Assembly: GCA_003223695.1 (NCBI GenBank)
Contig: QHVY01000144.1
Span: forward strand, 1 to 29,703
DNA from: Acidobacteriota bacterium
GTDB lineage: Bacteria > Acidobacteriota > Thermoanaerobaculia > Gp7-AA8
DNA length: 29,703 nt
Direction: 5' to 3'
Positions 11,818 to 25,545 of this stretch are shown here, in pieces. The first letter of the stretch is position 1; every line of letters begins with the position of its first letter. Made by a program: the position numbers and the translations under genes. Below the pieces are notes generated by a model, which was given only the letters and a program-made list of their open reading frames with translations, did not search any database and was not told the origin of the DNA.

Positions 11818-12772
11818 TCGCGCAGCAGCCACGATCGTGCTGCTCACTTTATCCGCCGCGATCTCCCTTCAAGCGCAAACTCCGCTCGCGGTCATCCCAA
11901 CAAACGACTCGAAGATCGTTCGCCGCTGGTCGCTTCCAGGCGATCCGCATGGCATCGCGATCGGCGCCGACGGCACGATTTACGTTGGCCTTGCGCAGCC
12001 GCAGGCTGTCGTGGCGATCGATCCTGCACGCGGCACAATCAAGAAGCGGGTGGTCCTTGCAGCGACAAAAGAGCTCGTCACGATGCGAATGAGCGCCGAC
12101 GGAAAGCACCTCTATGTCGCAAATGGCAGCGACGAGAGCGTCACGATCCTCGAGCTGCCTGACCTCCACGTCGCCCGCGAGATCACGATCGAAGGTGAGC
12201 CGATCCGCGACGCGCTTCCCGATCCGAAAGGACGTTACCTGTTTGTTCTTGGTCATCGCGTGCATGTTTACGACGCGAGCGGCAACGAGGAACTACGCAT
12301 GCTCGCCCTGGATGAGCCGACGGCGATCGCCGCTACCGACTCACATTTGGCGGTGCTCACCAAAGATCGACTGACGTTCTACGAGACCAAAGGCTTCCAG
12401 GAAACCGGATTCGTCGCGGGACTGAACGGGATTGAAGCCGCTCTGTTTGCCGGCCGCGTCCTTCTTCTCCTCGGCCACGACACACTTTATGAAGTCTCAC
12501 AAAAGACGATCAGCGAACCGATCTGCCTCCCGAAGGGAAGCGGGCCGCAAATCGCCACGCTCGCAGCGCCACGCCTTCTGCTATTCGCTGAACGGCGATG
12601 CAGCAGCAGCGGCGCGTTTTCCAGCGCCGATCATCTCGTCACGCCGGCATCGCTCTACGGCGTGAACGCGTACGCAGTGGCATATGACGGGCAATCGAAT
12701 CTGCTCTACACGACCGAGCGCGCGGGATACCTTACAATTTACCGTGTGCCCAGACCGGCGGTCGCTCATTAG
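11814..12772 (+). CDS. Secreted YncE/YVTN-like beta-propeller protein; probable 1-nt deletion near 11820
   Basis: Beta-propeller-like repeats (PHGIAIGADGTIYV, ADGKHLYVAN, PKGRYLFV). The GTGA-coupled start at 11814 is out of frame; one extra C gives the signal peptide MIRAAATIVLLTLSAAISLQA. An in-frame GTG at 11837 is the alternative start. Confidence 0.7.
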
Positions 12773-12837
12773 GTTGTCAGTTATCGGTTGTCGGTTGTCC
12801 CCACCCGCCGACAACCGACAACTGACAACCGACAACC
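12772..12837. repeat. Heptamer-arm hairpin H1: (GGTTGTC)4, 10-nt loop, (GACAACC)4
   Basis: Four tandem 7-mers per arm in inverted orientation, filling the spacer before purQ. Confidence 0.95.
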
Positions 12838-12841
12838 AATT

Positions 12842-13537
12842 ATGAAATTCGGCATCGTCGTTCTTCCCGGATCCAACTGCGATCACGACGCGCTCCACGT
12901 CACGCGCGACATCATCGGCGCTGAGGCCGAAGTGCTCTGGCACAAAGACACGGACCTCAAAGGCGTCGACTGCGTGATCATCCCCGGCGGGTTCGCGTAC
13001 GGCGATTACTTGCGTGCCGGAGCGCTGGCGAAATTCGCTCCGATCATGGAGCCCATCCGCCATCATGCCGCCGCGGGCGGCATCGTCTTCGGCATCTGCA
13101 ATGGATTTCAGGTGCTCACGGAAGTCGGACTTCTTCCCGGCGCGCTGATGCGCAACGCGCATCTGCGCTTCGCCAGCCGCGACATCCTTCTGCGCACCGA
13201 AGAAACCGACACGCCGTTCACGAGCGAACTCACGAACGGAGAAATTCTGCGGATGCCGATCGCTCATGGCGAAGGAAACTATTTCGCTGATCCGGCTACG
13301 CTCGATGAGCTCGAACGCAACCGGCAGGTGATCTTCCGCTATTGCGACAGCGAAGGACGAATCATCTCGGAAGCGAATCCGAACGGCTCGGCGCGCAACA
13401 TCGCCGGCATCTGCAATCGCGAGCGTAACGTCCTCGGCATGATGCCGCATCCGGAACGCTGCTCCGAGGCGCTGTTGGGGAACGCGGATGGCGTGGGTGT
13501 GTTCAAATCGATTGCGGCATCGCTGGCGCGCGTGTGA
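12842..13537 (+). CDS. purQ: Phosphoribosylformylglycinamidine synthase subunit PurQ (glutaminase)
   Basis: [55 protein letters not shown]. The true start is ATG 12842; the upstream ORF extension is repeat-derived. Confidence 0.95.
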
Positions 13538-14451
13538 GAATCGCAGCCGCCGTTGTCATTCTCCTCACATCGCCCGCGCTCGCTGACGAAGTCACACTGC
13601 AAACGCCGACTGGCACGCTTTACGGCACACTGCTCGTGCCGCCCGCTCGTGCGACGCTGGCGGTAGTTCTGATCATCGCCGGCTCGGGGCCGACCGATCG
13701 CGATGGAAACTCCGCTCTTGAACAAGCTCCGAACAACTCCTACCGGATGCTCGCTGAGGCGCTCGCCGCGCTGGACATCGCCTCGCTGCAATATGACAAA
13801 CGCGGTGTGGCGGCAAGTGCTGCGGCATTCACTAGCGACATGACGATCGAGACCGAGATCAGCGATGCTATTGGATGGCTCCAGCAGCTTCGGAGCGATC
13901 CTCGATTTTCACTGCTCATCGTCGCCGGGCACAGTGAAGGATCATTGATCGGAATTATTGCCGCAGAAAGGATGCCGGTCGACCGCGTGATCTCACTCGC
14001 AGGCGCAGGCCGGCCAGCGGGCGACGTCATCCTGTCGCAGATCGAGGCACAATTCACGCCCGCGCTGATCGACGCTGCACGAAAAATTGTCGCCTCGTTA
14101 AATGCCGGCGTTACCGTCCCCAATTCGATGGTGCCGTTTGGACTCAGATTCATTTTCGACGAAAGTGGGCAACCGTATCTCATCTCCTGGTTTCGCTACG
14201 ATCCGGCGGTGGAGATTGGCCGATTGATGATTCCGGTTTTGATCGTACAGGGCACGGCTGACACTCAGGTCACTATCGACGACGCGATGCGACTGTCGAA
14301 CGCGAACCGTGTGGCGGAGCTGCAGATCATCACCGGCATGAATCACGAACTGAAAGATGCGTCCGATCCGACTTCGCCGATCGATCGCATTTTGGTCGCT
14401 ACTGTCACGAGTTTTATCCAGCCGCCGGTCCGTCGCCGCGCAGTCCGTTAG
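13534..14451 (+). CDS. Secreted alpha/beta hydrolase (serine aminopeptidase/esterase-like)
   Basis: Signal peptide, [20 protein letters not shown] nucleophile elbow, QGTAD and GMNH; the C-terminus is PPVRRRAVR. Confidence 0.85.
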
Positions 14452-14454
14452 AAT
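14449..14454 (+). promoter_or_regulatory. -10-like hexamer (TAGAAT) 9 nt before ATG 14464
   Basis: TAGAAT-cgccggcgg-ATG. It overlaps the upstream TAG stop, so it could be coincidental. Confidence 0.3.
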
Positions 14455-14463
14455 CGCCGGCGG

Positions 14464-15189
14464 ATGCCGAAAACTGTGTTGATCACCGGCGGGGCGCGAG
14501 GGATCGGGCGCGTCACGGCCATGCGCCTGCTCGCTGACGGCTATAACGTCGCCTTCACGTACACGAGGTCGAAAAAGGCAGCCGAGGAATTTGTGAGCAC
14601 CGATCGCGAGCGGCTGCACGCGTATCCAGGTGACGTTCGCGATGACGCGCGCAATCGCGCGGTTGTCGAAGACGTCATTACGCGCTTTGGAGCGCTCGAT
14701 GCCCTTGTGAACAATGCCGGGATTCGTCGCGACGCGTTGATGTTCAGCATGACGGACGAGCAGTGGGACGACGTTCTGGACACGAATCTGCGCGGCGCGT
14801 TCTCGATGACGCACGCCGCGCTGCCGATCATGCTGAAGCAGCGCCGCGGCGCAGTGGTGAACGTGGCCTCGGTGTCCGGATTGCACGGCGTCGTCGGCCA
14901 GACGAACTACTCGGCGGCGAAGGGGGGCTTGATTGCGATGACGCGGTCGCTTGCGCGTGAGGTCGCGCGCAGCGGAATTCGCATCAACTGCGTGGCGCCT
15001 GGCCTCGTCGAGACGGACATGCTCACAGGTCTCGATGCCGACATGAAGCGAAACATGATTCACGAGATCCCAATGCGGCGCGCGATTCGTGCGGACGAAG
15101 TCGCAGCGGCGATTGCCTTTCTCATTTCTGACGATTCGAGCGGGATCACCGGCCAGGTCCTGTGCATTGATGGCGGAGTGTCTGCGTGA
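14464..15189 (+). CDS. fabG: Short-chain dehydrogenase, 3-oxoacyl-ACP reductase (FabG)-like
   Basis: TGGARGIG, NNAGIRRD, YSAAKGG, NCVAPGLVETDM. The SDR family call is certain; FabG function is likely. Confidence 0.75.
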   Translation: MPKTVLITGGARGIGRVTAMRLLADGYNVAFTYTRSKKAAEEFVSTDRERLHAYPGDVRDDARNRAVVEDVITRFGALDALVNNAGIRRDALMFSMTDEQWDDVLDTNLRGAFSMTHAALPIMLKQRRGAVVNVASVSGLHGVVGQTNYSAAKGGLIAMTRSLAREVARSGIRINCVAPGLVETDMLTGLDADMKRNMIHEIPMRRAIRADEVAAAIAFLISDDSSGITGQVLCIDGGVSA

Positions 15190-16160
15190 ATACGTTCGCC
15201 GTTGACCGTTCGCCGTTGGCCGAGACAGAGAGCCCCTCACAGCCAACGGCCAACGGCCAACAGCCAACTTTCTCAGTGGTCATTCCGACGCATAACCGCA
15301 TCACGATGCTGCAGCGCGTTCTCGACGCACTTGGTCAGCAGCAGGAAGCGCCGGAGTTCGAGACGATCGTGATCAATGACGGCTCGACGGACGAGACGGA
15401 AAAGATTTTGACGCAGCGCAGCGGAATTGTCTTTCGCTCGCAGCCGAACTCCGGGCCAGGTCACGCGAGGAACCACGGAGTCTCGCTCGCACGCGGCCGC
15501 TTCATCGTCTTCATCGGCGACGATACGGTTCCCGAGCCGCGCTTCCTCGCCGAGCATGCCCGCACGCATCACGATTCCCACGATGATCGGCTTATCGCAT
15601 GTCTCGGTTACACGGGGTGGCCGCGCAGCGAGCGTGTTACCGCCTTCATGGATTACATAAACGATTATGGTCTTCAATTTGGATATAGATTAATTGAAGA
15701 CGGTGAAACGGTTCCATTCAACTTTTTCTACACGTCGAACATCTCGATCGACCGGCAGCTCCTCCTCGAGAATCCGTTCGACACCACGTTCCCATCCGCC
15801 GCGTGGGAGGACATCGAGCTCGCCTATCGTCTGGAGGCGCGCGGCCTCAAGATCCGCTATAACGCGAAGGCGGTGACGCGTCACTATCATCAGATGAATG
15901 TCGACTCCTTTGCCCGGCGGCAGTACACGGTTGGGAAATCGGGGGCGATTTTTTATCGCAAGCACCCGGAGCTCGGACATTTCCTCGGCGTACACGAGCT
16001 CGAATCGCGCCGTCTGGCGAATGAACGCCAGCTCGCGCGCCTCCATCGCCGCGCCCGACTCGGCGAGCGATTTCGGTTTCTCGCGCGCAATGATGTCTTC
16101 GAGAGGTTGATGCGCGAACACTACCTTCGCGGATTGAAAGATGGTCTTCATCACACTTGA
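15186..16160 (+). CDS. GT2 family glycosyltransferase
   Basis: SVVIPTHNR, INDGSTD, GPGHARNHG, FIGDDT and WEDIEL. The GTG start overlaps the SDR stop. Confidence 0.9.
   Translation: MNTFAVDRSPLAETESPSQPTANGQQPTFSVVIPTHNRITMLQRVLDALGQQQEAPEFETIVINDGSTDETEKILTQRSGIVFRSQPNSGPGHARNHGVSLARGRFIVFIGDDTVPEPRFLAEHARTHHDSHDDRLIACLGYTGWPRSERVTAFMDYINDYGLQFGYRLIEDGETVPFNFFYTSNISIDRQLLLENPFDTTFPSAAWEDIELAYRLEARGLKIRYNAKAVTRHYHQMNVDSFARRQYTVGKSGAIFYRKHPELGHFLGVHELESRRLANERQLARLHRRARLGERFRFLARNDVFERLMREHYLRGLKDGLHHT
15193..15268. repeat. Heptamer-arm hairpin H2 (CGTTGGC-like / ACGGCCA-like, 4+4 units) inside the GT2 N-terminus
   Basis: cgttcgc cgttgac cgttcgc cgttggc ... acagcca acggcca acggcca acagcca; the reading frame stays open. 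Confidence 0.9.
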
Positions 16161-16758
16161 AGGCATCGAAGGCTCCGGTAAGACGACGCAGCTCCGCAAG
16201 CTGGCGGAACGCATTCCGAACGTGCTGGTGACGAAAGAGCCAGGCGGCACGCCCACTGCGGATCGCATTCGAGCGATCTTGCTCGACACGCGCGAGAAGA
16301 TTGATCCCGTCGCGGAACTTTTTCTTTTCGCCGCATCGCGGCGGCAACATGTCACCGAGGTGATCCGCCCTGCCCTTGCCGAAGGACGCGTCGTGATCTG
16401 CGATCGATTCACTGATGCCACGCTCGCGTATCAGGGCTTTGGTCGCCTTCTCGATCTCGATCGGCTGCGCGGACTGAACGACTGGGCGACAGATTCGCTG
16501 AAGCCCGATCTCACGTTGATTTTCGACCTGCCCGAGGAGGTCGGATTGACGCGCGCGCGATCGCGCAATACGAAGGCGCCCCTCGACGAAGGACGCTTCG
16601 AGCTCGAAGATCTTCGATTTCATCGCCGCGTTCGCGAGGGCTACCTCGCACTCGCCGCCTCCGATCCAAAGCGTTATGCAGTGATCGACGCTACGGGAGC
16701 AGCGGACGAAGTTTTCGCGCGCACATGGCAGGTTCTGCAAGAGCGAGTGCCGATATGA
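16141..16758 (+). CDS. tmk: Thymidylate kinase
   Basis: FITLEGIEGSGKTTQ, KEPGGT, LLFAASRRQH-like segment, CDRFTDATLAYQG. Confidence 0.95.
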   Translation: MVFITLEGIEGSGKTTQLRKLAERIPNVLVTKEPGGTPTADRIRAILLDTREKIDPVAELFLFAASRRQHVTEVIRPALAEGRVVICDRFTDATLAYQGFGRLLDLDRLRGLNDWATDSLKPDLTLIFDLPEEVGLTRARSRNTKAPLDEGRFELEDLRFHRRVREGYLALAASDPKRYAVIDATGAADEVFARTWQVLQERVPI

Positions 16759-17534
16759 ACAATGCTGGAGCGCTGTTAGCCGACACCGCGCGTCGCGGGG
16801 AGCTGCATCATGCGGTGATTCTGCATGGACCGTCAGCCGAGGCGTTGCGCGACGCGGCGATTCGAATCGCCAAAGCGCTGAATTGTCTGAATCGAACGAG
16901 CGGCGACGATTGCCTCGCATGTCAGCGGATCGAGCGGCGCATTCATCCGGACGTGCACTTCATCGAAGTTGGCAGCGAGCGAAAGCTGATTAGCGTCGAA
17001 CAGATCCGCGACATCGTCGCTGCGGCCATCCTGCGGCCATACGAAGGGCGCAACAAAGTCTTCATCATCGATCCTGCGGATGCGCTGAGCGCCGGCGGAT
17101 CGAATTCGCTGTTGAAAACGCTCGAGGAACCGGTCCGCGACACGACGTTCATTCTGCTCACGCGCTCGCCCGACTTGCTGCTGCCGACGATCCGCTCGCG
17201 GTCGCAGGCGATTTACGTCGGAGGAAACGTGCAGCGCGATGAGGAGCTGGCGGCGGATATCGCCGTGCTGCTCGAACAGTTCGCCACGAAAAAAGAATCG
17301 GCGGCGCTGCTCGCGATTGCGGCCGTACTGGCCGGTCAGGAAGACCTCAGCCAGTCGATGGCGCTACTAGCAGAAATTCTGTGCGACGCCGCCGCCGGCC
17401 GTCCGGCGCTTGCCATTCCTCGCGAGCGGCTCCTCGCCGCGGCCGATGCATCGGTATTCAACACGCGATGGCTGATGGTCAACGCGGATGCGCGGATGAT
17501 CGTCGAGCAGGCGCTGCCAGCGCTCATCACCTGA
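16755..17534 (+). CDS. holB: DNA polymerase III delta-prime subunit (short form)
   Basis: Zn-finger cysteines (LNC...CLAC), HPDVH, ISVEQIR, NSLLKTLEEP, LLPTIRSR. ATGA-coupled to tmk, matching conserved tmk-holB synteny. Confidence 0.9.
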   Translation: MNNAGALLADTARRGELHHAVILHGPSAEALRDAAIRIAKALNCLNRTSGDDCLACQRIERRIHPDVHFIEVGSERKLISVEQIRDIVAAAILRPYEGRNKVFIIDPADALSAGGSNSLLKTLEEPVRDTTFILLTRSPDLLLPTIRSRSQAIYVGGNVQRDEELAADIAVLLEQFATKKESAALLAIAAVLAGQEDLSQSMALLAEILCDAAAGRPALAIPRERLLAAADASVFNTRWLMVNADARMIVEQALPALIT

Positions 17535-17535
17535 C

Positions 17536-17627
17536 GAAATTTCAAATGAAAAATGAAAAATGAAAAATGAAAAATCGTCGCTATGCCGGCTTTCATTTTT
17601 CATTCTTAATTCGAAATTCGAAATTTC
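17536..17627. repeat. Heptamer-arm hairpin H3a (AAAATGA / TTTCATT / CGAAATT units)
   Basis: Tandem 7-mers in inverted arms directly after the holB stop. Confidence 0.9.
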
Positions 17628-17727
17628 GCTTTTGAGATTCCGCCACTGGCGAAATGCGATGGCTGATGGTCAACGCGGATGCGCGGATGATCGTCGAGCA
17701 GGCGCTCGCAGCGCTGATCACCTGACG

Positions 17728-17831
17728 GAATTTCAAATTTCAAATTTCAAATGAAAAATAAAAAATAAAAAACGTGGTTCCGCCGGCTTTCATTTTTCAT
17801 GCTTAATTCTTAATTCGAAATTCGAAATTTC
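17728..17831. repeat. Heptamer-arm hairpin H3b (variant copy of H3a)
   Basis: Same architecture as H3a with different unit counts (three AATTTCA units, an extra CTTAATT). Confidence 0.9.
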
Positions 17832-17855
17832 GCTTTTGAGATTGCGGCACTGGCG

Positions 17856-17892
17856 AAAAAAATTTGCCCCGTCCCGCTTGGCGGGACGGGGC
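17856..17892 (-). terminator. Intrinsic terminator for a minus-strand transcript
   Basis: 12-bp perfect GC stem gccccgtcccgc/gcgggacggggc with a 3-nt loop. A run of seven A on the + strand (17856-17862) gives the U-tract on the minus strand. Confidence 0.8.
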
Positions 17893-18042
17893 GGGGGTTA
17901 CTTACTGGATGTGCGTGGCGCGAACGCTCAGGGGTGAGTCAACAGATCGGTAAGGTTCAAAGAAGACTTCAAGAGGTACAACTTTGAGGCAGGCTCAGTA
18001 CAACAGGAAGCAGATTCTCGCCTGCCCATCCAGTAATTCCTC
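17893..18042 (-). ncRNA. Candidate structured small RNA of about 150 nt, family unassigned (a 33-aa small ORF is the alternative)
   Basis: ttactggatg (17902-17911) pairs with catccagtaa (18027-18036). The pairing continues inward through further helices and internal loops. It is flanked by an AT-rich promoter-like region and a terminator, and no ORF-track ORF covers it. Confidence 0.4.
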
Positions 18043-18055
18043 AATGGTCAATACG

Positions 18056-18091
18056 GAGAAATTATCGCACACTTTGTGAAAAATTTCTCAA
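18056..18091 (-). promoter_or_regulatory. Putative sigma70-type promoter overlapped by an imperfect palindrome
   Basis: The minus strand reads TTGAGA-19 nt-GATAAT with an extended -10 TG; the spacing is longer than ideal. The palindrome is GAGAAATT..CACA-ctt-TGTG..AATTTCTC at 18056-18089. Confidence 0.4.
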
Positions 18092-18191
18092 TGTAACAGC
18101 AACGTGACAACAACTTATATTTCAATAAGATAACGCACAAATTCGGAAGCAACTGCAGACTACTACAGAACACTTGTTCGGTCAACCAGAT

Positions 18192-18719
18192 TCAGCGGAC
18201 GACCATCGACGGCACCGGGGTCAGCGCTCTACTTAGACTCACATGACCGGCCAAAGTTTCAGCCGGCTCTCCGTTGACGAGCACTCGCACACGTTTGGCC
18301 TCGACAAAATTCGCCGTAACTGTCTGCACCCCCGAGTAGATCGCCATCAACTCCTGATGGCTCCCTGTTGTCCAACCCTGGGTCAGCGTCGGTCCGCCGA
18401 GATCGACGAAGGCCGTGCCCTCGGGCAGGAGGTACGCCCCGCGAATTGTCGTATCGGCCGGAAGCAGCCGTGGAACGGCAGCGTTCGCCGAGCCCTTCAG
18501 CAGCTCGCGCATGACGAGGTCGAGCGCGGCGGCGGGATTCTGGGGAAGCGGCAGATTGCGACGTTCCGGTGCGAGTAACAGATCGGGCGATTCGTAGTAG
18601 AGCGACACCGTGCGCATCGCCACTTTGTTCTCGACGTTGAGATTGCGCGAAAGCGGCTGTTGCCGGCGGCAAGACGTTGTCAGGAGAAGCAGAGTGACAA
18701 ACGCAAAGCGGCGAATCAC
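18192..18719 (-). CDS. GerMN-domain lipoprotein
   Basis: Lipobox-like LLLTTSC, ELLKGS, AFVDL, ELMAIYSGVQTVTANF and VRVLVNGEPAETLAGH; downstream of an amidase, a common pairing. Confidence 0.85.
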   Translation of the reverse strand: MIRRFAFVTLLLLTTSCRRQQPLSRNLNVENKVAMRTVSLYYESPDLLLAPERRNLPLPQNPAAALDLVMRELLKGSANAAVPRLLPADTTIRGAYLLPEGTAFVDLGGPTLTQGWTTGSHQELMAIYSGVQTVTANFVEAKRVRVLVNGEPAETLAGHVSLSRALTPVPSMVVR

Positions 18720-20144
18720 TTCGATGCCGCCGCCGGTGCGGCCGGCCGAAGGACGCCGATACGCGTTTCGTAATCGATCTTGTAGCGCTGGATTGCAGTC
18801 GTCAGCGCGTCAATGATCATTTTCTAGAGCCGCCGGCATCGTCGCGCCGACGAGCACTTTGAATGGCGCCTGCTTCACGCCGCGATTCTGCACGCCGGTG
18901 GCTCGGTTCATCTCCTCCTGCACCGCCTGCGCGAAGCGGCTCGACTCGGCGAGATACTCCTGCTGCGCGAGGTCCCACAAGATCAGTTTTAGATCGCTGC
19001 TGCCGGCCGGCGGCAGCGGTCTCCCCGCGGCATTCTCCACCTCCGCTGCCTTCCTCGCGAGCTCGTCGGATGCTTCCAGCGAAAGAAAGTATGTCTCGGA
19101 GCCGTGCGCACCCTTGACCACGGCGGCGTTCATGTGCACCGACAGAAACAGATCGGCCTTGTACTGATTGGCGATGGCCGTCCTCTGATCAAGCGTGACC
19201 ACGCTGTCATCAGTGCGTGTGAGGATGACTCGCGTTCTCAGCCTCGTCTCGAGATTGTCTGCGAGTTTGCGGCAGAGCGTGAGCGTCGCATCCTTTTCCA
19301 TCATTCCGCCGGGCCCAATCGCACCGACTTCTTTGCCGCCGTGTCCAGGATCGATCACGATCGTGTGAATCCCCGGCGTCTCGACCGGCCTCGTGGGAAT
19401 GACGATCGTCGGCAGCGTCGAAGGTCCCGGAGCGACTTTGTGAAAGTCGAGCACGATCCGAAATGGATTCTCGAGTTTGTAGGCATCGGCGCCGGCATCC
19501 GGCGCTTTCAGATCGAGACGCAGATCGCTCGCCGAAAAAGTCGCTTTGGCGACGTACGGATCGTCGTACGACTGCGCCGCAAAGGGCGCGCGAATCTGCG
19601 TTTTAAATCGAATCGTGTACGCGCTCTGCTCCTTCGTGATCGTGTAATCCGTGGGTCCGCTGAGCGTGATCACGACTTTCGACACGCCCTGCACATTGGC
19701 CACCGACAACTGAACGCCGATGATCGTGTGCTGGGTCGGGCGCACTGTCAGGAAGCGGCTGACTGGATCCCACGACACCTCGAGGTCCGCCGCTTTGCCG
19801 AGGAATCCCTGGAAAAATTGGAGTGGGACGTAAGGGCGTCCTTCGACGATGGCGGGAGCGATTGGCATCTCGATCAGCTCATCGCGGACCACACCGAAGC
19901 GGCTGTCGGGACCGAACGCGGCGATCGTATTGTTCAAATTCGCCTTGAAGCCGGTCGCGTCTGGCGAAACGGCGCCTCCCAGCGCGGCCATGACTTCGTC
20001 CGCAGCAAACAGAGTTTGTCCATTGACGCGTGTGATCGTCACCAGGCGGTCACCCGTCGGCGTGCGAAGCGTCGCCTGATTGGGTGCCTGTGCGAGGAGA
20101 ATCGATGCGGCGGCGAGAATCAGCAGCGGAAAAAACCGCTTCAT
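18716..20144 (-). pseudogene. N-acetylmuramoyl-L-alanine amidase (Amidase_3) with a C-terminal deletion/frameshift
   Basis: The Zn-ligand motifs VIDPGHGG, EK and LSVHMNA are present. After ATMPAAL the frame shifts; the C-terminus KMIIDALTTAIQRYKIDYETRI...ASK* continues in another frame to a TGA overlapping the GerMN GTG. Confidence 0.85.
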
Positions 20145-20146
20145 AA

Positions 20147-20225
20147 CAGTGCCCAGTTCCCGGTGCCCCGTGCCCAGTCCATTGGAATCAACAACCTGGG
20201 CACTGGGTACTGGGCACCGGGCACT
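20147..20225. repeat. Heptamer-arm hairpin H4 (CAGTGCC / CTGGGCA units)
   Basis: 4+4 tandem 7-mers in inverted arms, between divergent genes. Confidence 0.9.
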
Positions 20226-20250
20226 TCGATTCTCGTATTATCGCATGCCG

Positions 20251-20835
20251 ATGACCGCTCGCTTCTCATTGATGTTGCTCGTCGTGGCTGCTTGCGGCCC
20301 AGCGAACCCGAACGGGCCGCAAGTCAGCAAAGAACCGATCAGCGTGCGCGGCTGGATTGTCGACGTCGCCGGTTCGCCGCACGCTCCCTTTCAGACGCCG
20401 GAGACCGAGGCCGCTCGTCGTCGTCAGCTCTTTCAATCGACGTACGTGGATGTCGAGAATGCTCCGTACGTGTCGGGGGGAATTGCGGAAAACGGCGCGT
20501 TCATCCTGCTCGACGTACCGCCGGGGAACATAACGATAACGTTCACCGCGCCGGGCGCGCCTGCCGCGCGACTCGTCTTGAAGAACATTCCTGGAAACGC
20601 GGACGTGTTCGTTACGGCGATGCTGCTCAAAGCCGACTCAGTCGCGCTCCTCGAGCCAAAAAATGTGAAGGTGCGCCTCGCGGCGACGATTGAGCGGCCG
20701 GCACCTGCGAACCTGACCGCAAACGTCGCCGGACTCGCGGTACCGGTGATGAATACGCCGATCGCTCAGATGGCGGACAGGCACGATTACCCGAATCCGC
20801 CGGGCGGATTGCGGCCATTAGCAACTGTGAAGTAA
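20251..20835 (+). CDS. Hypothetical lipoprotein (carboxypeptidase-regulatory-like beta domain)
   Basis: Lipobox LLVVAAC; GAFILLDVPPGNITITF. The start is ATG 20251 or 20245. Confidence 0.75.
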   Translation: MTARFSLMLLVVAACGPANPNGPQVSKEPISVRGWIVDVAGSPHAPFQTPETEAARRRQLFQSTYVDVENAPYVSGGIAENGAFILLDVPPGNITITFTAPGAPAARLVLKNIPGNADVFVTAMLLKADSVALLEPKNVKVRLAATIERPAPANLTANVAGLAVPVMNTPIAQMADRHDYPNPPGGLRPLATVK

Positions 20836-20856
20836 TGCGCGCGACCCACGAAGTGC

Positions 20857-20950
20857 AAATTTCGAATTTCGAATGAAGAATTCAGAATTAGAACAGCCTT
20901 GAGCGGATGGGCTTCTTAATTCTTAATTCTGAATTCGAAATTCGAACTTT
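20857..20950. repeat. Heptamer-arm hairpin H5 (GAATTTC / TTCTTAA / TTCGAAA units)
   Basis: Inverted tandem 7-mer arms between convergent genes; the right arm resembles those of H3a and H3b. Confidence 0.9.
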
Positions 20951-20956
20951 CTCAGG

Positions 20957-21922
20957 TCAAAGAATTAGCTCCGCGAATTTTTTCAAATCAATATTGCCAC
21001 CTGACACCACCGCGACGATCGGCCCTCCTCCCGCCCGCCCGCTCAGCGCCGCGGCGACCCCCAGCGCTCCCGCCCCTTCCGCGATCACGCGCGTCTTCTC
21101 CGCGATGAGTCGCATTGCGCGGCGCACTTCGTCGAGTGAGACCACAATCGACCCATCGACGATTCCCTGCATGCGCTCCCACATTCGCGGAAAGATGCTC
21201 TTGCCGCCGGCGCCGTCGACGAACGACGCTTGCCACTGGGTGAACACTTGCGGCGAATTTTTTTCGAATGAGAGCGCGCCCGGCGCCGCGGTCTCCGGTT
21301 CGGCGCCGAGGATTCGGACGTTCGGTGAGAGCTGGCGGATGGCGCTGCCGATTCCCGAGATCAACCCGCCGCCGCCGATCGCGGCGATGACGGTCTTCAC
21401 GTTCGGCAAGTCCTCGATGATTTCCAGGCCGAGTGTGGCGTTGCCGGCGACGAAATTGTGATCGTCGAACGGATGGATGAACGTCCCTTCCACGCCGGGA
21501 AACTCGCGCGTCTCCATCGCGCGCCAGCAAGCGTCGAACGGCGCTTTCACGATACGTGCACCGAGGTTGCGCATGCGTTCCAGTTTCGTCTCCGGAGCGG
21601 TTTCGATCGCCACGACCGTGCAGACGATTCCCGCGTCGCGCGCGGCGAAGGCGACGCCTTGACCGGCGTTGCCGGCGCTGATTGTCCAGACTCCTTTTTT
21701 GCGAGCTTCCGGCGTGAGCATCGCCACCGCATTCGCCGCGCCGCGAATCTTGAACGCGTTGATCGGCTGTAGCGTCTCCAGCTTCAACCAGATGTCCGGT
21801 GCTGTCGTGTCGTGCCGCAATTGAATGAGTGGTGTATGCACGACGAGTTTGCGCGTCCGCTCGCGCGCGGCGCGGATCTCTTCGATCGACACCGGACGGA
21901 CGGGAGGAGGGGCGACGGTCAT
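20957..21922 (-). CDS. PLP-dependent threonine/serine dehydratase-family enzyme without an ACT domain
   Basis: HTPL, LKLETLQPINAFKIRGA (PLP lysine), SAGNAGQG, IGGGGLISG, AEGAGA, VVSGGNID. The start is ATG 21922. Confidence 0.9.
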   Translation of the reverse strand: MTVAPPPVRPVSIEEIRAARERTRKLVVHTPLIQLRHDTTAPDIWLKLETLQPINAFKIRGAANAVAMLTPEARKKGVWTISAGNAGQGVAFAARDAGIVCTVVAIETAPETKLERMRNLGARIVKAPFDACWRAMETREFPGVEGTFIHPFDDHNFVAGNATLGLEIIEDLPNVKTVIAAIGGGGLISGIGSAIRQLSPNVRILGAEPETAAPGALSFEKNSPQVFTQWQASFVDGAGGKSIFPRMWERMQGIVDGSIVVSLDEVRRAMRLIAEKTRVIAEGAGALGVAAALSGRAGGGPIVAVVSGGNIDLKKFAELIL

Positions 21923-21930
21923 GGCGGGCG

Positions 21931-21936
21931 ATTGTA
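21931..21936 (-). promoter_or_regulatory. -10 hexamer (TACAAT) 8 nt before ATG 21922; putative leaderless promoter
   Basis: The minus strand reads TACAAT-cgcccgcc-ATG with no Shine-Dalgarno sequence. Confidence 0.5.
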
Positions 21937-21970
21937 TCTTTCCGGCATACCTCGTGCTCTGTAACGAAGC

Positions 21971-22675
21971 ATGGAAAATACGAATGTCAGCAATCCCGAG
22001 CGCTGGATCTCGGTGATTGGCGGAACCGCGCTCGCAGCATACGGCCTCGCTCGTCGATCGATTCCCGGAGTGCTTCTCGCCGGTATCGGCGGCATCCTTG
22101 CGTGGCGCGGCGCCACCGGACGCTGCCCGCTCTACGGCGCGCTCGGCATTTCCACCGCCGATGAAAAGGACGAGGATCGCAACGTAAGCGTGTCGTACGG
22201 ACGCGGCATTCGCGTCGAAGAGAGCGTCACCGTCAATTCCTCTCCGGAAGAGCTCTATCACTTCTGGCGAAATTTCGAGAATTTGCCGCGAATCATGTCC
22301 CATCTGCAATCCGTCAAAGTGCTCGATGACAAACGCTCGCACTGGGTCGCGAAAGGACCGATCGGAACCGATGCCGAGTGGGATGCTGAGATCATCAACG
22401 AGATTCCCAATGAGCTGATCGGCTGGCGCTCTGTCGACGGAGCAAATGTTCACAACGCCGGGTCGGTACACTTCACTCGTTCCGGCGGCAATCGCGGAAC
22501 CGATGTGAAGGTGGTGCTCCGATACGACCCGCCGGCGGGCGCGCTCGGCGCGGCGATCGCCAAGCTGTTCGGCGAAGATCCTGCGCGTCAAGTGCAGGAG
22601 GATCTCCGAGCATTCGCATTAAAATATTCGGACCGCGAAAGGGGACGCGGCACTTCTTTCGAGGAGGCTCGTTGA
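21971..22675 (+). CDS. DUF2892 + SRPBCC (polyketide cyclase/dehydrase-like) protein
   Basis: NVSNPERWISVIGG, ATGRCPLYGALGIST, FWRNFENLPRIM, SHWVAKGP, EWDAEI, GSVHF. The C-terminal tail looks atypical. Confidence 0.85.
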   Translation: MENTNVSNPERWISVIGGTALAAYGLARRSIPGVLLAGIGGILAWRGATGRCPLYGALGISTADEKDEDRNVSVSYGRGIRVEESVTVNSSPEELYHFWRNFENLPRIMSHLQSVKVLDDKRSHWVAKGPIGTDAEWDAEIINEIPNELIGWRSVDGANVHNAGSVHFTRSGGNRGTDVKVVLRYDPPAGALGAAIAKLFGEDPARQVQEDLRAFALKYSDRERGRGTSFEEAR

Positions 22676-23016
22676 TGTCTCGATCGCTGTTCGCTGCCGC
22701 CTTGCTTCTCGTCGCCTCTCCACTCATCGCTGCGCCGTTCGTGAAACGTCTCGGGCGCTGTCCGCATCAGTTCGATTTCTCCGCTGAGATCACCTCGCGC
22801 CATCCTGGAGAAGTTACAGTCCAGTGGCTCCGCAGCGACGGCGCGACCGGACCGTCCCAAAAATTGCACTTCAATCGCGGCAATGAGACACGCCGCGTCT
22901 TCGATCACTGGAGGCTCGGAAGCCGTTATCGCGGCTGGGAACAACTGCGGGTGACCGACGGCGCGGGTAACAGGAGCATGTCGCGTCGAGTGACATTCAC
23001 GAACCGCTGCCGCTGA
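22675..23016 (+). CDS. Small secreted beta-rich hypothetical protein
   Basis: GAGGAGG RBS at 22661-22667, signal peptide MSRSLFAAALLLVASPLIA, two Cys (CPHQF and terminal NRCR), WLRSDG. Confidence 0.75.
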   Translation: MSRSLFAAALLLVASPLIAAPFVKRLGRCPHQFDFSAEITSRHPGEVTVQWLRSDGATGPSQKLHFNRGNETRRVFDHWRLGSRYRGWEQLRVTDGAGNRSMSRRVTFTNRCR

Positions 23017-23063
23017 GGTGTAGGGCCGGCTTTAGCCGGCCGGCTGAAGCCGGCCCGCACACC
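23017..23063. repeat. Double-hairpin GTAG-type REP containing the stop codon of the RlmA-like gene
   Basis: ggtgtagggccggctttagccggccggctgaagccggcccgcacacc; the minus-strand TAA is at 23032-23034. Confidence 0.85.
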
Positions 23064-23844
23064 GGAACAACAGCAAGTCGAGGCTGAGATGGACAGCGGA
23101 GGGCCGCTGTCCTCCACGCGGGCGATAGCTCGCGAAGAGGATGTCCCGCGCTTCATCTGCATTCAGCTCAGCGACTGTCGTCGCGCGCTCCCGCTTCACG
23201 AGCGAGAAGAACGGCGCGAATGTCTCGATGGTCCGCGCAACGCGATCGCGTCCGCGTCTTCCGCGCAATTCGATCAGATCGTCGGGAGCGGCAACTGCGA
23301 CGAGCAGATATCCGCGTCCGACTCTCCGAAATTCTTCTGCGTTCATGCGGCCGGTGATCGAGAGGATGAGATCGAAGGATGCGTCGGCATAGGGGATGAA
23401 TCGATCGGCATTCGCCACGATCCATTCGCATTGCGGATAGCGTCGCGCCGCGAGATCGATCGCCGCGGTCGAAATGTCGATCCCGGACCCGCGGCCGAGG
23501 GAACCGAGGTAGTAACCGTCGCCGCAGCCGGCGTCGAGGATCGACTCCTCAGCATGCCCTCTCCCTTGGGAGAGGGTGGCGCGAAGCGCCGGGTGAGGGG
23601 CGACCATCGCCCGAATCGCATCAAGCAGCGGCTCGGCGTGACCGCGATCGAGAAACCGCCGCCGCGCCGCCACCGCCTCGGCAGAGTCGCCGGGATTTCG
23701 CGAGCGGCGCTCCTGCGGCTGCAGCAGATTGATATAGCCGCTGCGCGCGATGTCGAAGGAGTGACCACGCGGACAGACGACGCGCCGCTCCTCGCGCGCA
23801 AGCGGGAGGTGGCAACTGCGCACTGTGCAAAGGAGTTGCGGCAT
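23032..23844 (-). CDS. RlmA-like (23S rRNA m1G745/748) SAM-dependent methyltransferase
   Basis: N-terminal Zn-binding CTVRSC...CPRGHSFDIARSGYINLL, then GDSAE and ILDAGCGDGYY. The start is ATG 23844. Confidence 0.8.
   Translation of the reverse strand: MPQLLCTVRSCHLPLAREERRVVCPRGHSFDIARSGYINLLQPQERRSRNPGDSAEAVAARRRFLDRGHAEPLLDAIRAMVAPHPALRATLSQGRGHAEESILDAGCGDGYYLGSLGRGSGIDISTAAIDLAARRYPQCEWIVANADRFIPYADASFDLILSITGRMNAEEFRRVGRGYLLVAVAAPDDLIELRGRRGRDRVARTIETFAPFFSLVKRERATTVAELNADEARDILFASYRPRGGQRPSAVHLSLDLLLFRCAGRLQPAG
23557..23600. repeat. CCCTCTCCC-type palindromic repeat, in frame in the RlmA-like gene
   Basis: ccctctcccttgggagagggtggcgcgaagcgccgggtgagggg translates as PHPALRATLSQGRG on the minus strand. 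Same family as 26697..26797. Confidence 0.9.
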
Positions 23845-23846
23845 AG

Positions 23847-23919
23847 GTTGGCCGTTGGCTTTTGGCCGTTGGCCGTGAACATTGCCTATCGGCCAGCGGC
23901 GAATGGCGAACGGCCAACG
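23847..23919. repeat. Heptamer-arm hairpin H6 (GTTGGCC / CGGCCAA units)
   Basis: 4+4 tandem 7-mers in inverted arms between divergent genes; same unit family as H2. Confidence 0.9.
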
Positions 23920-23925
23920 TAGAAT
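23920..23925 (+). promoter_or_regulatory. -10 hexamer (TAGAAT) 6 nt before ATG 23932; putative leaderless promoter
   Basis: TAGAAT-tctccc-ATG with no Shine-Dalgarno sequence. Confidence 0.5.
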
Positions 23926-23931
23926 TCTCCC

Positions 23932-25545
23932 ATGCACCGCTCGACGCGAAGGCTCATCGCGCTGGCGATGGTTCTCGTCGCGTTCGTCACCGCCTCCGCG
24001 CTGATTTATCAGTTCGCAATGGCGCACCTCGAGGGAAAGCCGCGCACGTTCTGGGAATCGTTCGATTGGGCAGCGGGAACATTGAGCACCACCGGCTACG
24101 GCGGCGACGTCCGCTGGAGTAACCCGGAGATGGTCCTTCTCGTCGCCGCATTGCAGCTCATCGGCGTGTTCCTGATTTTCATGATCGTGCCGGTCGTCAT
24201 GATTCCGTTTCTCGAACGCCGGTTCGAGGAACGCCTCCCGCGCGAAGCGGGTGACATCGCCAATCACATCGTGATTTATCGATTCGGACCAGCGGTTGAG
24301 TCACTCATACAGCGGCTGAAAGCGGCCGCGGTGCCGTCGCTCGTCCTCGAGACCGACGAAGCCGCAGCGCGAGCGGTTCTGGAGATGGACCAGCGCGTCG
24401 TCTTCAGCCGCGCCGAAGAAGACGCGCTCGACGTGTGCCGCCTGGGCGTCGCCCGGGCGCTCGTCGCGAATGGCCGTGACGAAGAAAACGCGGCGATCGT
24501 TTTGCGCGCGCGACAGATGGGATTCCGCGGCGAGATTTTCGCCTTCGTGGAGGAGCCGGCGCATCGACGTCCGATCGAGCTCGCCGGGGCGACGTCTGCC
24601 TATACGCCGAGGCACATCGTCGCTGCCGCGCTCGCGGCGCACGCGAGCGATCGGATCAGTCCGCGCCTGCCGGGAGCGGAGTCGATCGCTGGACTGGAAC
24701 GACGAGAGCTGCGCGTCCCGGCATCGAGTCCGCTCGCCGGAAAAACGCTGGGCGAGGCGCAGATCGGATCGCGAAGCGGAGCGATCGTTGTCGGAGAATG
24801 GTCGCGAAGCCGGTTGAACGCGAGCTGCGACGGAGAGCTGCGCATCGAGCCCGGCGCGCTGCTCGAGCTCGTAGGCGATGCAGCGAGCCTCGATCGTGCG
24901 GCACAGCTCTTCGGCGCCGCGTACATGCGGCGCAAAGGCCCGTACATCGTCGCCGGCTTTGGCGAAGTCGGACGAAAGGTACATGAGCTGCTCACCGATG
25001 CCGGCGAAGAAGTGCGCGTGATCGAAAAGCAATCGATGAAAGGCGTCGACTTCGTTGGCAATGTGCTCGATCCGTCGGTACTCGAAAGCGCGGGACTTCG
25101 CGACTCGCGCGGCGTCGTACTGGCGCTCGACTCCGATGACGCCACGCTTTTCGCGACAGTGATCTGCCGCGACGCCGCGGCCGACGTGCCAGTGATCGCG
25201 CGCGTCAATCACGCGCGGAACATCGACAACATCTACCGCGCCGGCGCCGACTACGCCCTTTCGATCAGCGACATCTCCGGTGAAATGCTCTCCGCTCGCC
25301 TCCTCGGCCGCTCCCGAACGCATGAGCAACATCGCAAAATCGCCCGCATTGCGGCGAACGGCGCCGCCGGCCGGACGATCGCCGAGCTGCCGATCCGCAA
25401 GCATGGCTGCTCTGTCGTGGCGATTGCCCGGAACGGCGCGTTCATCACCCGCTTGAGCGCGCAGACGAAAATCGAACTCGGCGACGAGCTGTACGTGTGC
25501 GGCAACGCTGAGGCGCTGAAATTGCTTGAGAAGTTCACGTCATGA
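23932..25545 (+). CDS. Potassium channel family protein with TrkA-N/TrkA-C (RCK) domains
   Basis: Two TM helices around the selectivity filter TLSTTGYGG, then Rossmann motifs IVIYRFG and IVAGFGEVG with TrkA-C segments. Confidence 0.9.
   Translation: MHRSTRRLIALAMVLVAFVTASALIYQFAMAHLEGKPRTFWESFDWAAGTLSTTGYGGDVRWSNPEMVLLVAALQLIGVFLIFMIVPVVMIPFLERRFEERLPREAGDIANHIVIYRFGPAVESLIQRLKAAAVPSLVLETDEAAARAVLEMDQRVVFSRAEEDALDVCRLGVARALVANGRDEENAAIVLRARQMGFRGEIFAFVEEPAHRRPIELAGATSAYTPRHIVAAALAAHASDRISPRLPGAESIAGLERRELRVPASSPLAGKTLGEAQIGSRSGAIVVGEWSRSRLNASCDGELRIEPGALLELVGDAASLDRAAQLFGAAYMRRKGPYIVAGFGEVGRKVHELLTDAGEEVRVIEKQSMKGVDFVGNVLDPSVLESAGLRDSRGVVLALDSDDATLFATVICRDAAADVPVIARVNHARNIDNIYRAGADYALSISDISGEMLSARLLGRSRTHEQHRKIARIAANGAAGRTIAELPIRKHGCSVVAIARNGAFITRLSAQTKIELGDELYVCGNAEALKLLEKFTS

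Follow-up and report, generated by a model that had tools for sequence, protein, structure and literature searches.

The first 29.7 kb of contig C39 from a soil Thermoanaerobaculia genome (Acidobacteriota) carries seven intergenic hairpins, each with two inverted arms of about four tandem heptamers around a unique loop. This stretch, referred to here as the window, belongs to a metagenome-assembled genome (MAG) of 3.88 Mb in 507 contigs that is 84% complete and is labelled G000. We propose, with a probability of roughly 60%, that these hairpins are gene-less copies, whether non-autonomous or decayed, of palindromic cassettes of the intervening sequence (IVS) type, in which arms of the same kind enclose a gene for a four-helix-bundle protein of the PF05635/TIGR02436 family. 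The observations behind this proposal are the architecture of the hairpins, their genome-wide census, their positions relative to genes, their presence or absence at orthologous sites, the linkage of PF05635 genes to such arms, and the co-inheritance of arms and protein within cassette lineages.

Heptamer arms in the window and across the genome

Tandem Repeats Finder (TRF), run on the window and on all contigs, detected paired period-7 arrays at all seven sites, none of which has a gene inside. Six of the seven elements form RNA folds of -25 to -53 kcal/mol; their z-scores lie between -4 and -10 relative to 200 dinucleotide shuffles per element, and no shuffle equalled them (0/200). The predicted stems show a 1x1 mismatch that recurs at every seventh pair. 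No Rfam family was found in the window at the gathering threshold. These results bear out the first-pass annotation of the window, which had described seven hairpins with paired period-7 arms and had proposed that one architecture is shared by different unit sequences; such an architecture (period 7, about four units per arm, a unique loop) is common to many unit sequences genome-wide.

Over the whole genome TRF reported 840 arrays of period 7; period 6 accounts for 162 arrays and period 8 for 219. Strict inverted pairs, defined as adjacent arrays with reverse-complement units, were counted 235 times at period 7, whereas period 8 has 10 such pairs and period 9 has 27; no other period has more than two, and periods 5 and 6 have none. 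Under a relaxed, looser criterion that accepts any inverted partner, 584 of 835 arrays have one, which corresponds to approximately 290 hairpins. At least 70% of arrays form inverted pairs, and solo arrays occur too. A template of the form GTT(N4)x3 ... AAC(N4)x3 has 86 matches at period 7, eight at period 8 and none at periods 5, 6 and 9; in the reverse polarity it matches one site, versus 86. The first-pass annotation had treated period 7 as the defining property, to be given up if other periods were equally common, and the pair counts show that they are not. The preference for period 7 is therefore real, but its strictness is not, as families of period 8 (GGTTGCTN) and period 9 (CACAGAGNN) share the hairpin architecture. 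Altogether the hairpins account for 5.4% of intergenic bases and are found in 18% of the co-directional gaps that are 60 nt or longer. Direct arrays of GTTAACN were also observed at G000:C98:2277-2306, C118:1169-1203 and C44:5760-5790; the hexamer core of this unit is itself palindromic, so that a single array is self-complementary.

The genome contains 37 canonical unit types and more than 12 families of units. In every family the unit consists of a hexamer conserved to 90% or more at each position and of one free base; in the AT-rich elements, two unit types are combined in composite arms. Many units are one-step neighbours of the form NNNN-AAC (GGCCAAC, GGCGAAC, GAAGAAC, GAACAAC, CGACAAC and ATTCAAC), and others have the form NNNN-ACT. 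Most unit types fall into a few mutationally connected superfamilies, such as GTT...AAC. The unit types had initially been called unrelated, but GACAACC, GGCCAAC/GGCGAAC, GAAGAAC and ATTCAAC all belong to the NNNN-AAC neighbourhood. A "telomere-like" rule, with a GT-rich 5' arm, was tried and rejected: it fits only the GTT...AAC superfamily and fails for GGGCACT and CACAGAG.

Arm length is 29.2±5.3 nt for either arm, most often four units, and expansions of individual arms to 17-40 units occur. One arm's length does not predict that of the other (r=0.03), and arm complementarity is 0.894 within an element versus 0.897 between elements of the same family. Because there is no covariation in sequence or length, the arms behave like two independent samples of a family consensus rather than mirror copies, and they are not stems held paired by compensatory change. 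This runs counter to the earlier idea of a common process that builds a mirror arm. The median loop is 13 nt long, and members of one family have unrelated loops, on which ground copying of whole elements was rejected; the spacers between arms range from 0 to 80 nt. With respect to transcription the strands differ weakly (82 C.C versus 50 G.G mismatches, with the 3' arm 1 nt longer). The loop motif CCCRCCC is enriched 7.5-fold, yet it is limited to two families and occurs in both orientations.

PF05635 cassettes and their arms

There are exactly six PF05635 matches in the genome, even at E<=10. Four of the genes are bracketed by arms on both sides, and the other two are cut by contig ends and have an arm on the side that is present. 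These arms belong to six families, each of which also occurs as gene-less hairpins: CGTTGGC/CGGCCAA arms of the GGCCAAC family on contig C163, GAATGTT/ACATTCA arms of the AACATTC family on C22, AAGGCAG arms on C465, period-8 TGGGTTGC/AGCAACCG arms of the period-8 AGCAACCN family on C214, ACCCGCT arms of the ACCCGCY family on C218, and one GGCACTG arm of the GGGCACT family at the contig-cut gene on C345. The cassette arms adjoin the stop and start codons of neighbouring genes. The encoded proteins match TIGR02436, "four helix bundle protein", and their closest solved structure is 2rld, a five-chain entry. The GGCCAAC-armed cassette (G000:C163:3230-3687) shares its arms with the window hairpin at 15193-15268. 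Its PF05635 gene (G000:C163:3337-3622) is split over two frames and is a decaying copy, as reported for Coxiella.

Arm sequence and period were compared across two cassette lineages, with three loci from unpublished genomes (L189, L197 and L215) excluded from the counts. Among homologues of the C22 protein (48-87% identity), period-7 arrays flank the gene in 27 of 27 published family genomes, on both sides in 26. GAATGTT arms are retained down to approximately 60% protein identity, followed by GAATGCA, GAATTGA, ATTGAGG, AGGCAGA and others. Homologues of the C214 protein from 28 genomes have period-8 arms in 18 cases, period 7 only in eight and other arms in two. Period-8 arms are thus found in 18/28 of the C214 lineage versus 0/27 of the C22 lineage (Fisher 1.2e-7, for related genomes that are not independent). 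Over these 55 relatives, both the sequence and the period of the arms are inherited together with the protein lineage.

In a survey of 301 genomes of the class, whose tallies include three unpublished ones (G004, G175 and G179), the hairpin-bearing families (f1, f5, f7, f4 and f11) are those with strong PF05635 matches; families f13, f15 and f10 have no hairpins, and PF05635 is absent or sub-threshold in them. Gene-less AACATTC hairpins are present in four of five genomes with a GAATGTT-armed cassette versus 17 of 95 others. No PF05635 gene was detected by tblastn near holB in the 160 related loci that were gathered with this gene from soil Thermoanaerobaculia MAGs for the junction comparison below. 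We found no literature tying the PF05635 protein family to dispersed heptamer repeats.

The IVS of Coxiella is a 428-nt selfish element in 23S rRNA with a 28-bp terminal stem; it contains tandem GACAGAT heptamers in strain-variable number and a decaying S23p ORF, and RNase III cleaves it mid-stem (PMC4990558). The rRNA IVS of Coxiella burnetii and Leptospira resemble the elements described here in being palindromic cassettes with a heptamer stem of approximately 28 bp and an often decaying four-helix-bundle gene, and probably also in their location in a transcribed region. In G000 the terminal inverted repeats have the length and folding energies given above, the stem is built from tandem heptamers in variable number, as in a +14 nt variant, and the six full copies enclose a PF05635/TIGR02436 ORF. 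This ORF is not found in the seven window elements or in the other approximately 300 hairpins, which we therefore file as derivatives and not as full members. Published rRNA IVS lie in helices 25/45 and are cut by RNase III, whereas the copies seen here lie between protein-coding genes (the rRNA genes of the MAG were not examined) and their cleavage would be by analogy. A further difference is the presence here of at least six lineages per genome in addition to the approximately 300 gene-less copies.

In the mechanism we envisage, a full cassette comprises a 5' arm of about four units (each a hexamer with one or two free bases), a gene for the four-helix-bundle protein PF05635/TIGR02436, also called S23p or Avd-like, and a reverse-complement arm, with each lineage having its own arm sequence and period. 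Full and gene-less forms occupy gaps that would be transcribed, reaching from a stop codon to a few bases before a start codon or lying between divergent genes. The arms may pair in the transcript to form a stem of approximately 28 bp, which RNase III, encoded in the genome by rnc, would cut as it does in the rRNA IVS of Coxiella, Leptospira and Salmonella. The insert could be removed or neutralised at the RNA level, with folding joining the old stop and start, and operon junctions would for this reason tolerate the hairpins. Local slippage would alter the number of units in each arm independently, and the encoded protein may recognise or propagate the arms.

Several observations weigh against this cassette origin. 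Mismatches on the sense strand of co-directional pairs comprise 85 G.U versus 118 A.C, giving no signal of selection for RNA pairing, and the two arms covary neither in variants nor in length. Loops of one family share only 3-7 nt beside the arms, and the same applies to comparisons with cassette interiors; no loop, including those of 80-900 nt, holds a partial PF05635 remnant. Step-wise decay and copy-paste of a defined miniature inverted-repeat transposable element (MITE) are therefore not seen. Many AACATTC hairpins occur without a close homologue of the matching protein in G283 (67 matches), G306 and G199, and two fragmented MAGs, G224 and G232, are hairpin-rich yet have weak or no PF05635 matches. 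Within the family PF05635 is near-universal, so that co-occurrence is weak there, and related genomes are not independent. Lastly, the ACTGAGG, AACGAAG, AAATTTC, GACAAC and period-9 CACAGAG families have no cassette in the 84%-complete assembly.

What propagates such elements is a separate and more tentative matter. The PF05635 four-helix-bundle protein is a candidate reader of the arms. Conceivably, the PF05635/TIGR02436 pentamer acts as a sequence- and period-specific reader of its own arms and propagates or maintains a hitherto unrecognised class of mobile cassette without a transposase, a repetitive extragenic palindrome (REP)-associated tyrosine transposase (RAYT) or a reverse transcriptase, a possibility that we rate below even odds. 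The common reader postulated in the first-pass annotation is in part upheld, in that it gains a concrete candidate whose lineages co-inherit arm sequence and period.

Gene context, orthologous junctions and competing explanations

Gene positions were taken from our own dicodon caller, which is crude; its start-codon distances are biased short, and its stop-codon distances are reliable. By gap, 156 hairpins are co-directional, 39 divergent and 10 convergent (n=205), and the genome-wide gaps number 2474, 559 and 557, respectively. The convergent class holds 10/205 hairpins versus 15.5% of all gaps, an approximately three-fold depletion (p=2.8e-6). The 5' arm begins a median of 2 nt past the upstream stop codon, which often lies inside the first unit, and between the 3' arm and the next start there is a median of 16 nt (<=5 nt in 28%). 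Since the hairpins are depleted between convergent genes, they are not terminators. A terminator scan of positions 12000-24500 found nine sites versus 13.1 expected, with one (23838-23855) touching a hairpin; on the strength of this lack of excess and the convergent depletion, intrinsic terminators were ruled out. A Shine-Dalgarno-like motif (-20 to -4) is present at 23% of genes overall and at 11% of those that follow a hairpin, and the organism seems to rely little on Shine-Dalgarno pairing, like other heptamer-rich phyla.

At empty junctions the stop and start codons overlap (ATGA, TGATG) or are separated by a spacer of 4-14 nt, and at occupied junctions the hairpin lies exactly between stop and start. 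Orthologous junctions alternate, with an overlap in some relatives and hairpins of differing families in others. One family can be re-used at several junctions of one genome, as is the case for AATGCAG in L012 and ATTTTGG in L024. A comparison of occupied and empty junctions revealed no consistent target duplication, and this result, together with the unrelated interiors of same-family copies, led us to reject a MITE. Within the window's own family the GTT...AAC template occurs in 54/72 genomes; elsewhere among the 301 genomes, three families have it and five lack it. Even within a genus its distribution is patchy, with 168 matches in G059, 158 in G103 and none in G075, G083 and G091.

The window elements illustrate these patterns. 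The GACAAC-family hairpin at 12772-12837 has arms at 12772-12799 (GGTTGTC x4) and 12808-12837 (CCGACAA x4.3) around the loop CCCACCCG (dG -41.1, z -10.4), and is placed between the TAG stop of the upstream gene (12770-12772) and the purQ ATG (12842). A GTTGTCN-type hairpin including the CCCACCC loop is common to the window, L089, L090 and L101 at this junction. Window and L090 are identical at 68/72 positions of the hairpin, and at 65% of purQ third codon positions. L100 and L109 have the GTTGTC core again, but with period 8, and the junction is empty in L003, L104, L108 and L110, where stop and start overlap. The GGCCAAC/GGCGAAC-family hairpin at 15193-15268 (arms 15193-15222 and 15242-15268; dG -36.6, z -6.2, periodic C.C mismatches) follows the stop of an SDR gene (15187-15189) and precedes the GTG of a GT2 gene (15276). 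Of 43 relatives, approximately 15 carry a hairpin at this junction, and these represent at least nine unit types; the rest show an ATGA overlap. The purQ and GT2 start codons in the window are backed by conserved N-termini. A long GT2 ORF (15186-16160) runs through the entire hairpin, beginning at a GTGA overlap with the upstream gene, and automatic annotation would probably gain a false 30-residue N-terminal extension here.

Two AT-rich hairpins follow holB. The composite hairpin at 17536-17627 (arrays 17544-17575 and 17608-17625, with outer GAAATTY and inner AAATGAA units; dG -24.8, z -3.95) begins right behind the holB stop (17532-17534), and its composite architecture has at least 13 copies in the genome. 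The degenerate second hairpin at 17728-17831 (arrays 17729-17772 and 17802-17829) folds weakly (z -1.35, folded as 17727-17835) and is preceded by a tandem duplicate, approximately 190 nt long, of the holB 3' end. The duplicated segment, at 17458-17841, comprises the holB 3' end together with the hairpin, and comparable "arm plus flank" duplications are found at G000:C144:9776-10037 and C165:9872-10081. These could be repeat-mediated duplications or two strains collapsed by the assembler. Also downstream of holB, a non-coding stretch on the minus strand (17866-18090) is conserved in nearly all of approximately 100 related loci; it has the shared blocks 'ctactggatg', 'cgaacgctcagg' and 'ggtaagattcaaagaag', ends in a strong terminator (17892-17866) and has no Rfam match at the gathering threshold. 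The stretch resembles a conserved gene for a small RNA.

The GGGCACT-family hairpin at 20147-20225 (arms 20147-20178 and 20196-20225; dG -53.3, z -6.9) lies in the divergent gap between an amidase start (20144, minus) and an ORF start (20245, plus). L001 and L096 carry CGTGCCC/GGGGCAC arms at this junction, which is empty in L002, L021, L032, L087 and L101. A further AT-rich composite hairpin at 20857-20950 (arrays 20858-20874 and 20913-20946; dG -37.1, z -6.8) lies in a convergent gap, between stops at 20835 (plus) and 20957 (minus). The last element, a GGCCAAC/GGCGAAC-family hairpin at 23847-23919 (arms 23847-23876 and 23897-23919; dG -51.4, z -7.7), separates the divergent starts of an RlmA-like methyltransferase gene (23844, minus) and a TrkA-type gene (ATG 23932). 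Its junction holds a related CGTTGGC-type hairpin in L032, GTTGTC in L001, GTTCTTY in L087 and period-8 GGTTGCTN in L130 and L141, and is empty in L021, L101, L124 and L128. In Logan contigs from four soil runs (DNA), which break at hairpins, the only variants seen were one of +14 nt, a two-unit insertion at 20866 in contig X1, and loop indels.

Three other repeats or variants were noted. A second, unrelated palindrome family with a core like 'catcctgagcg...cgctcaggatg' occupies the same kinds of junction in L001, L003, L027, L056, L063, L090 and L093, and is possibly the target of the many Y1_Tnp genes. Positions 23557-23600, inside the RlmA-like gene, have a metagenome contig depth of 250-1270 with many loose ends, which marks a different, very abundant short repeat. 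At 12056, within the upstream beta-propeller gene, contigs of two soil runs (X3 and X4) contain a 15-nt insertion, an in-frame strain variant.

Among the alternatives to a cassette origin, the one that fares best is that the hairpins are intercistronic RNA structures selected by the host, serving as 3'-end stabilisers, processing sites or in translation coupling, with the cassette link being secondary. Their occurrence where a downstream start exists, in co-directional and divergent gaps, and their depletion in convergent ones are consistent with such a role, as are the very stable stems and the low Shine-Dalgarno use. Also in its favour, the window and L090 share 94% identity over the purQ-junction hairpin, loop and free bases included, compared with 65% at purQ third positions. 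We nevertheless consider this explanation unlikely for the hairpins as a whole, given the patchiness within a genus, the many relatives in which the same junction is empty, the genome-specific arm families, and the lack of both a G.U excess over A.C and compensatory change between arms. Individual conserved copies may have a host-selected RNA function, but the patchy distribution speaks against it.

Somewhat less probable again are plain simple sequence repeats (SSR) that slip in place and gain an inverted copy by template switching, with no element or dedicated protein. Variation in unit number (the +14 nt insertion in a metagenome contig and the single arms of 17-40 units), uncorrelated arm lengths, solo arrays and the heptamer SSR excess known in several phyla (PMC4692102) would all be expected of slippage. 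It leaves unexplained the dozens of same-core copies at unlinked sites with fixed polarity (86:1), the position of 6/6 PF05635 genes between such arms, an arm sequence and period that follow the protein lineage, and an arm length near four units.

The hairpin potential could in principle be incidental to arrays of DNA-level binding sites for a nucleoid or regulatory protein, which would suit the conservation of six of seven positions with one free, the fixed polarity and arms that need not match each other. Spacers of variable length (0-80 nt), the presence of a dozen distinct cores in each genome, a location inside operons and not at promoters, and a presence that varies strongly among congeners make this very improbable. 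Least probable of all is a REP/REPIN-like system mobilised by RAYT (a Y1 HUH transposase): the hairpins are dispersed, genome-specific palindromes in intergenic gaps and the genome has 5-6 Y1_Tnp matches, but none of these genes is flanked by heptamer hairpins, Y1_Tnp is present in 247/301 class genomes including hairpin-free families, it is missing from G059 and G155 (100% complete; 168 and 153 template matches), G002, G017, G031 and G079 have 7-14 copies and zero template matches, no GTAG/CGTC tag was found, and the context is unlike that of REP in using divergent and avoiding convergent gaps. Co-occurrence with RAYT or reverse transcriptase had been suggested as a check. With neither flanking in G000 nor co-occurrence in the 301 genomes, RAYT is largely refuted as a partner, and no RVT_1 was found in this 84%-complete genome.

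Relation to known repeats and significance

For Xanthomonas, Rehm et al. (2015) reported 186 arrays of GGGAATC, mostly of four units, with about 70-75 convergent pairs per genome that form inverted repeats and 89-93% of arrays intergenic; the arrays lie near the upstream ORF, have the unit logo GGGANTN and are not kept at the same genes between species (PMC4692102). The hairpins of G000 are likewise convergent pairs of heptamer arrays of about four units in intergenic gaps. The Xanthomonas repeats differ in having a single G-rich unit, studied as a G-quadruplex, whereas the present genome has more than 12 unit families as well as forms of period 8 and 9; furthermore, they do not avoid convergent gene pairs (16%), and no link to a cassette gene has been reported for them. 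Direct TAACTGA repeats just upstream of start codons were reported in Beggiatoaceae, Cyanobacteria and Bacteroidetes (MacGregor 2015; PMC4679880). These and the heptameric short tandemly repeated repetitive (STRR) sequences of cyanobacteria share with our hairpins an intergenic location, often a few nucleotides before starts, few canonical ribosome-binding sites, a patchy distribution and an unexplained origin. They are overwhelmingly direct (169 direct versus 1 indirect in BOGUAY; PMC4679880), in contrast to the at least 70% of inverted pairs here. The architecture had been put forward as an undescribed system. Because the inverted heptamer arrays of Xanthomonas (PMC4692102) and the TAACTGA repeats have been published, as has the 28-bp heptamer stem of the Coxiella IVS (PMC4990558), this no longer holds, although we found no paper on such heptamer hairpins in Acidobacteriota.

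REP, bacterial interspersed mosaic element (BIME) and REPIN sequences are also dispersed, genome-specific extragenic palindromes with two arms and a variable linker. The hairpins described here differ from them in having internally tandem-repetitive arms, no RAYT association and the opposite gene-context bias. Diversity-generating retroelements (DGR) use Avd, a small four-helix-bundle protein that is pentameric, works with a reverse transcriptase as an accessory factor and, we presume, is related to PF05635. A DGR differs from the present elements: no RVT_1 was found in this 84%-complete genome, and neither a template nor a variable repeat is present.

For annotation, these elements matter since they sit where ribosome-binding sites are expected, can mimic N-terminal extensions and break short-read assemblies. 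Tandem heptamer repeats have been recorded since 1990 in cyanobacteria, Xanthomonas, Beggiatoaceae and other groups without an origin or function, and the "23S rRNA intervening-sequence protein" family is widespread and has solved structures but no known role. If the PF05635 protein does read its own arms, the STRR, Xanthomonas GGGAATC and TAACTGA repeats would be its footprints, and protein geometry would dictate whether the repeat period is 7 or 8. The link seen in this genome and its relatives turns two open questions, that of the heptamer repeats and that of the IVS protein, into one testable hypothesis, in which the pentamer would bind its cognate arms and RNase III would excise the stems.

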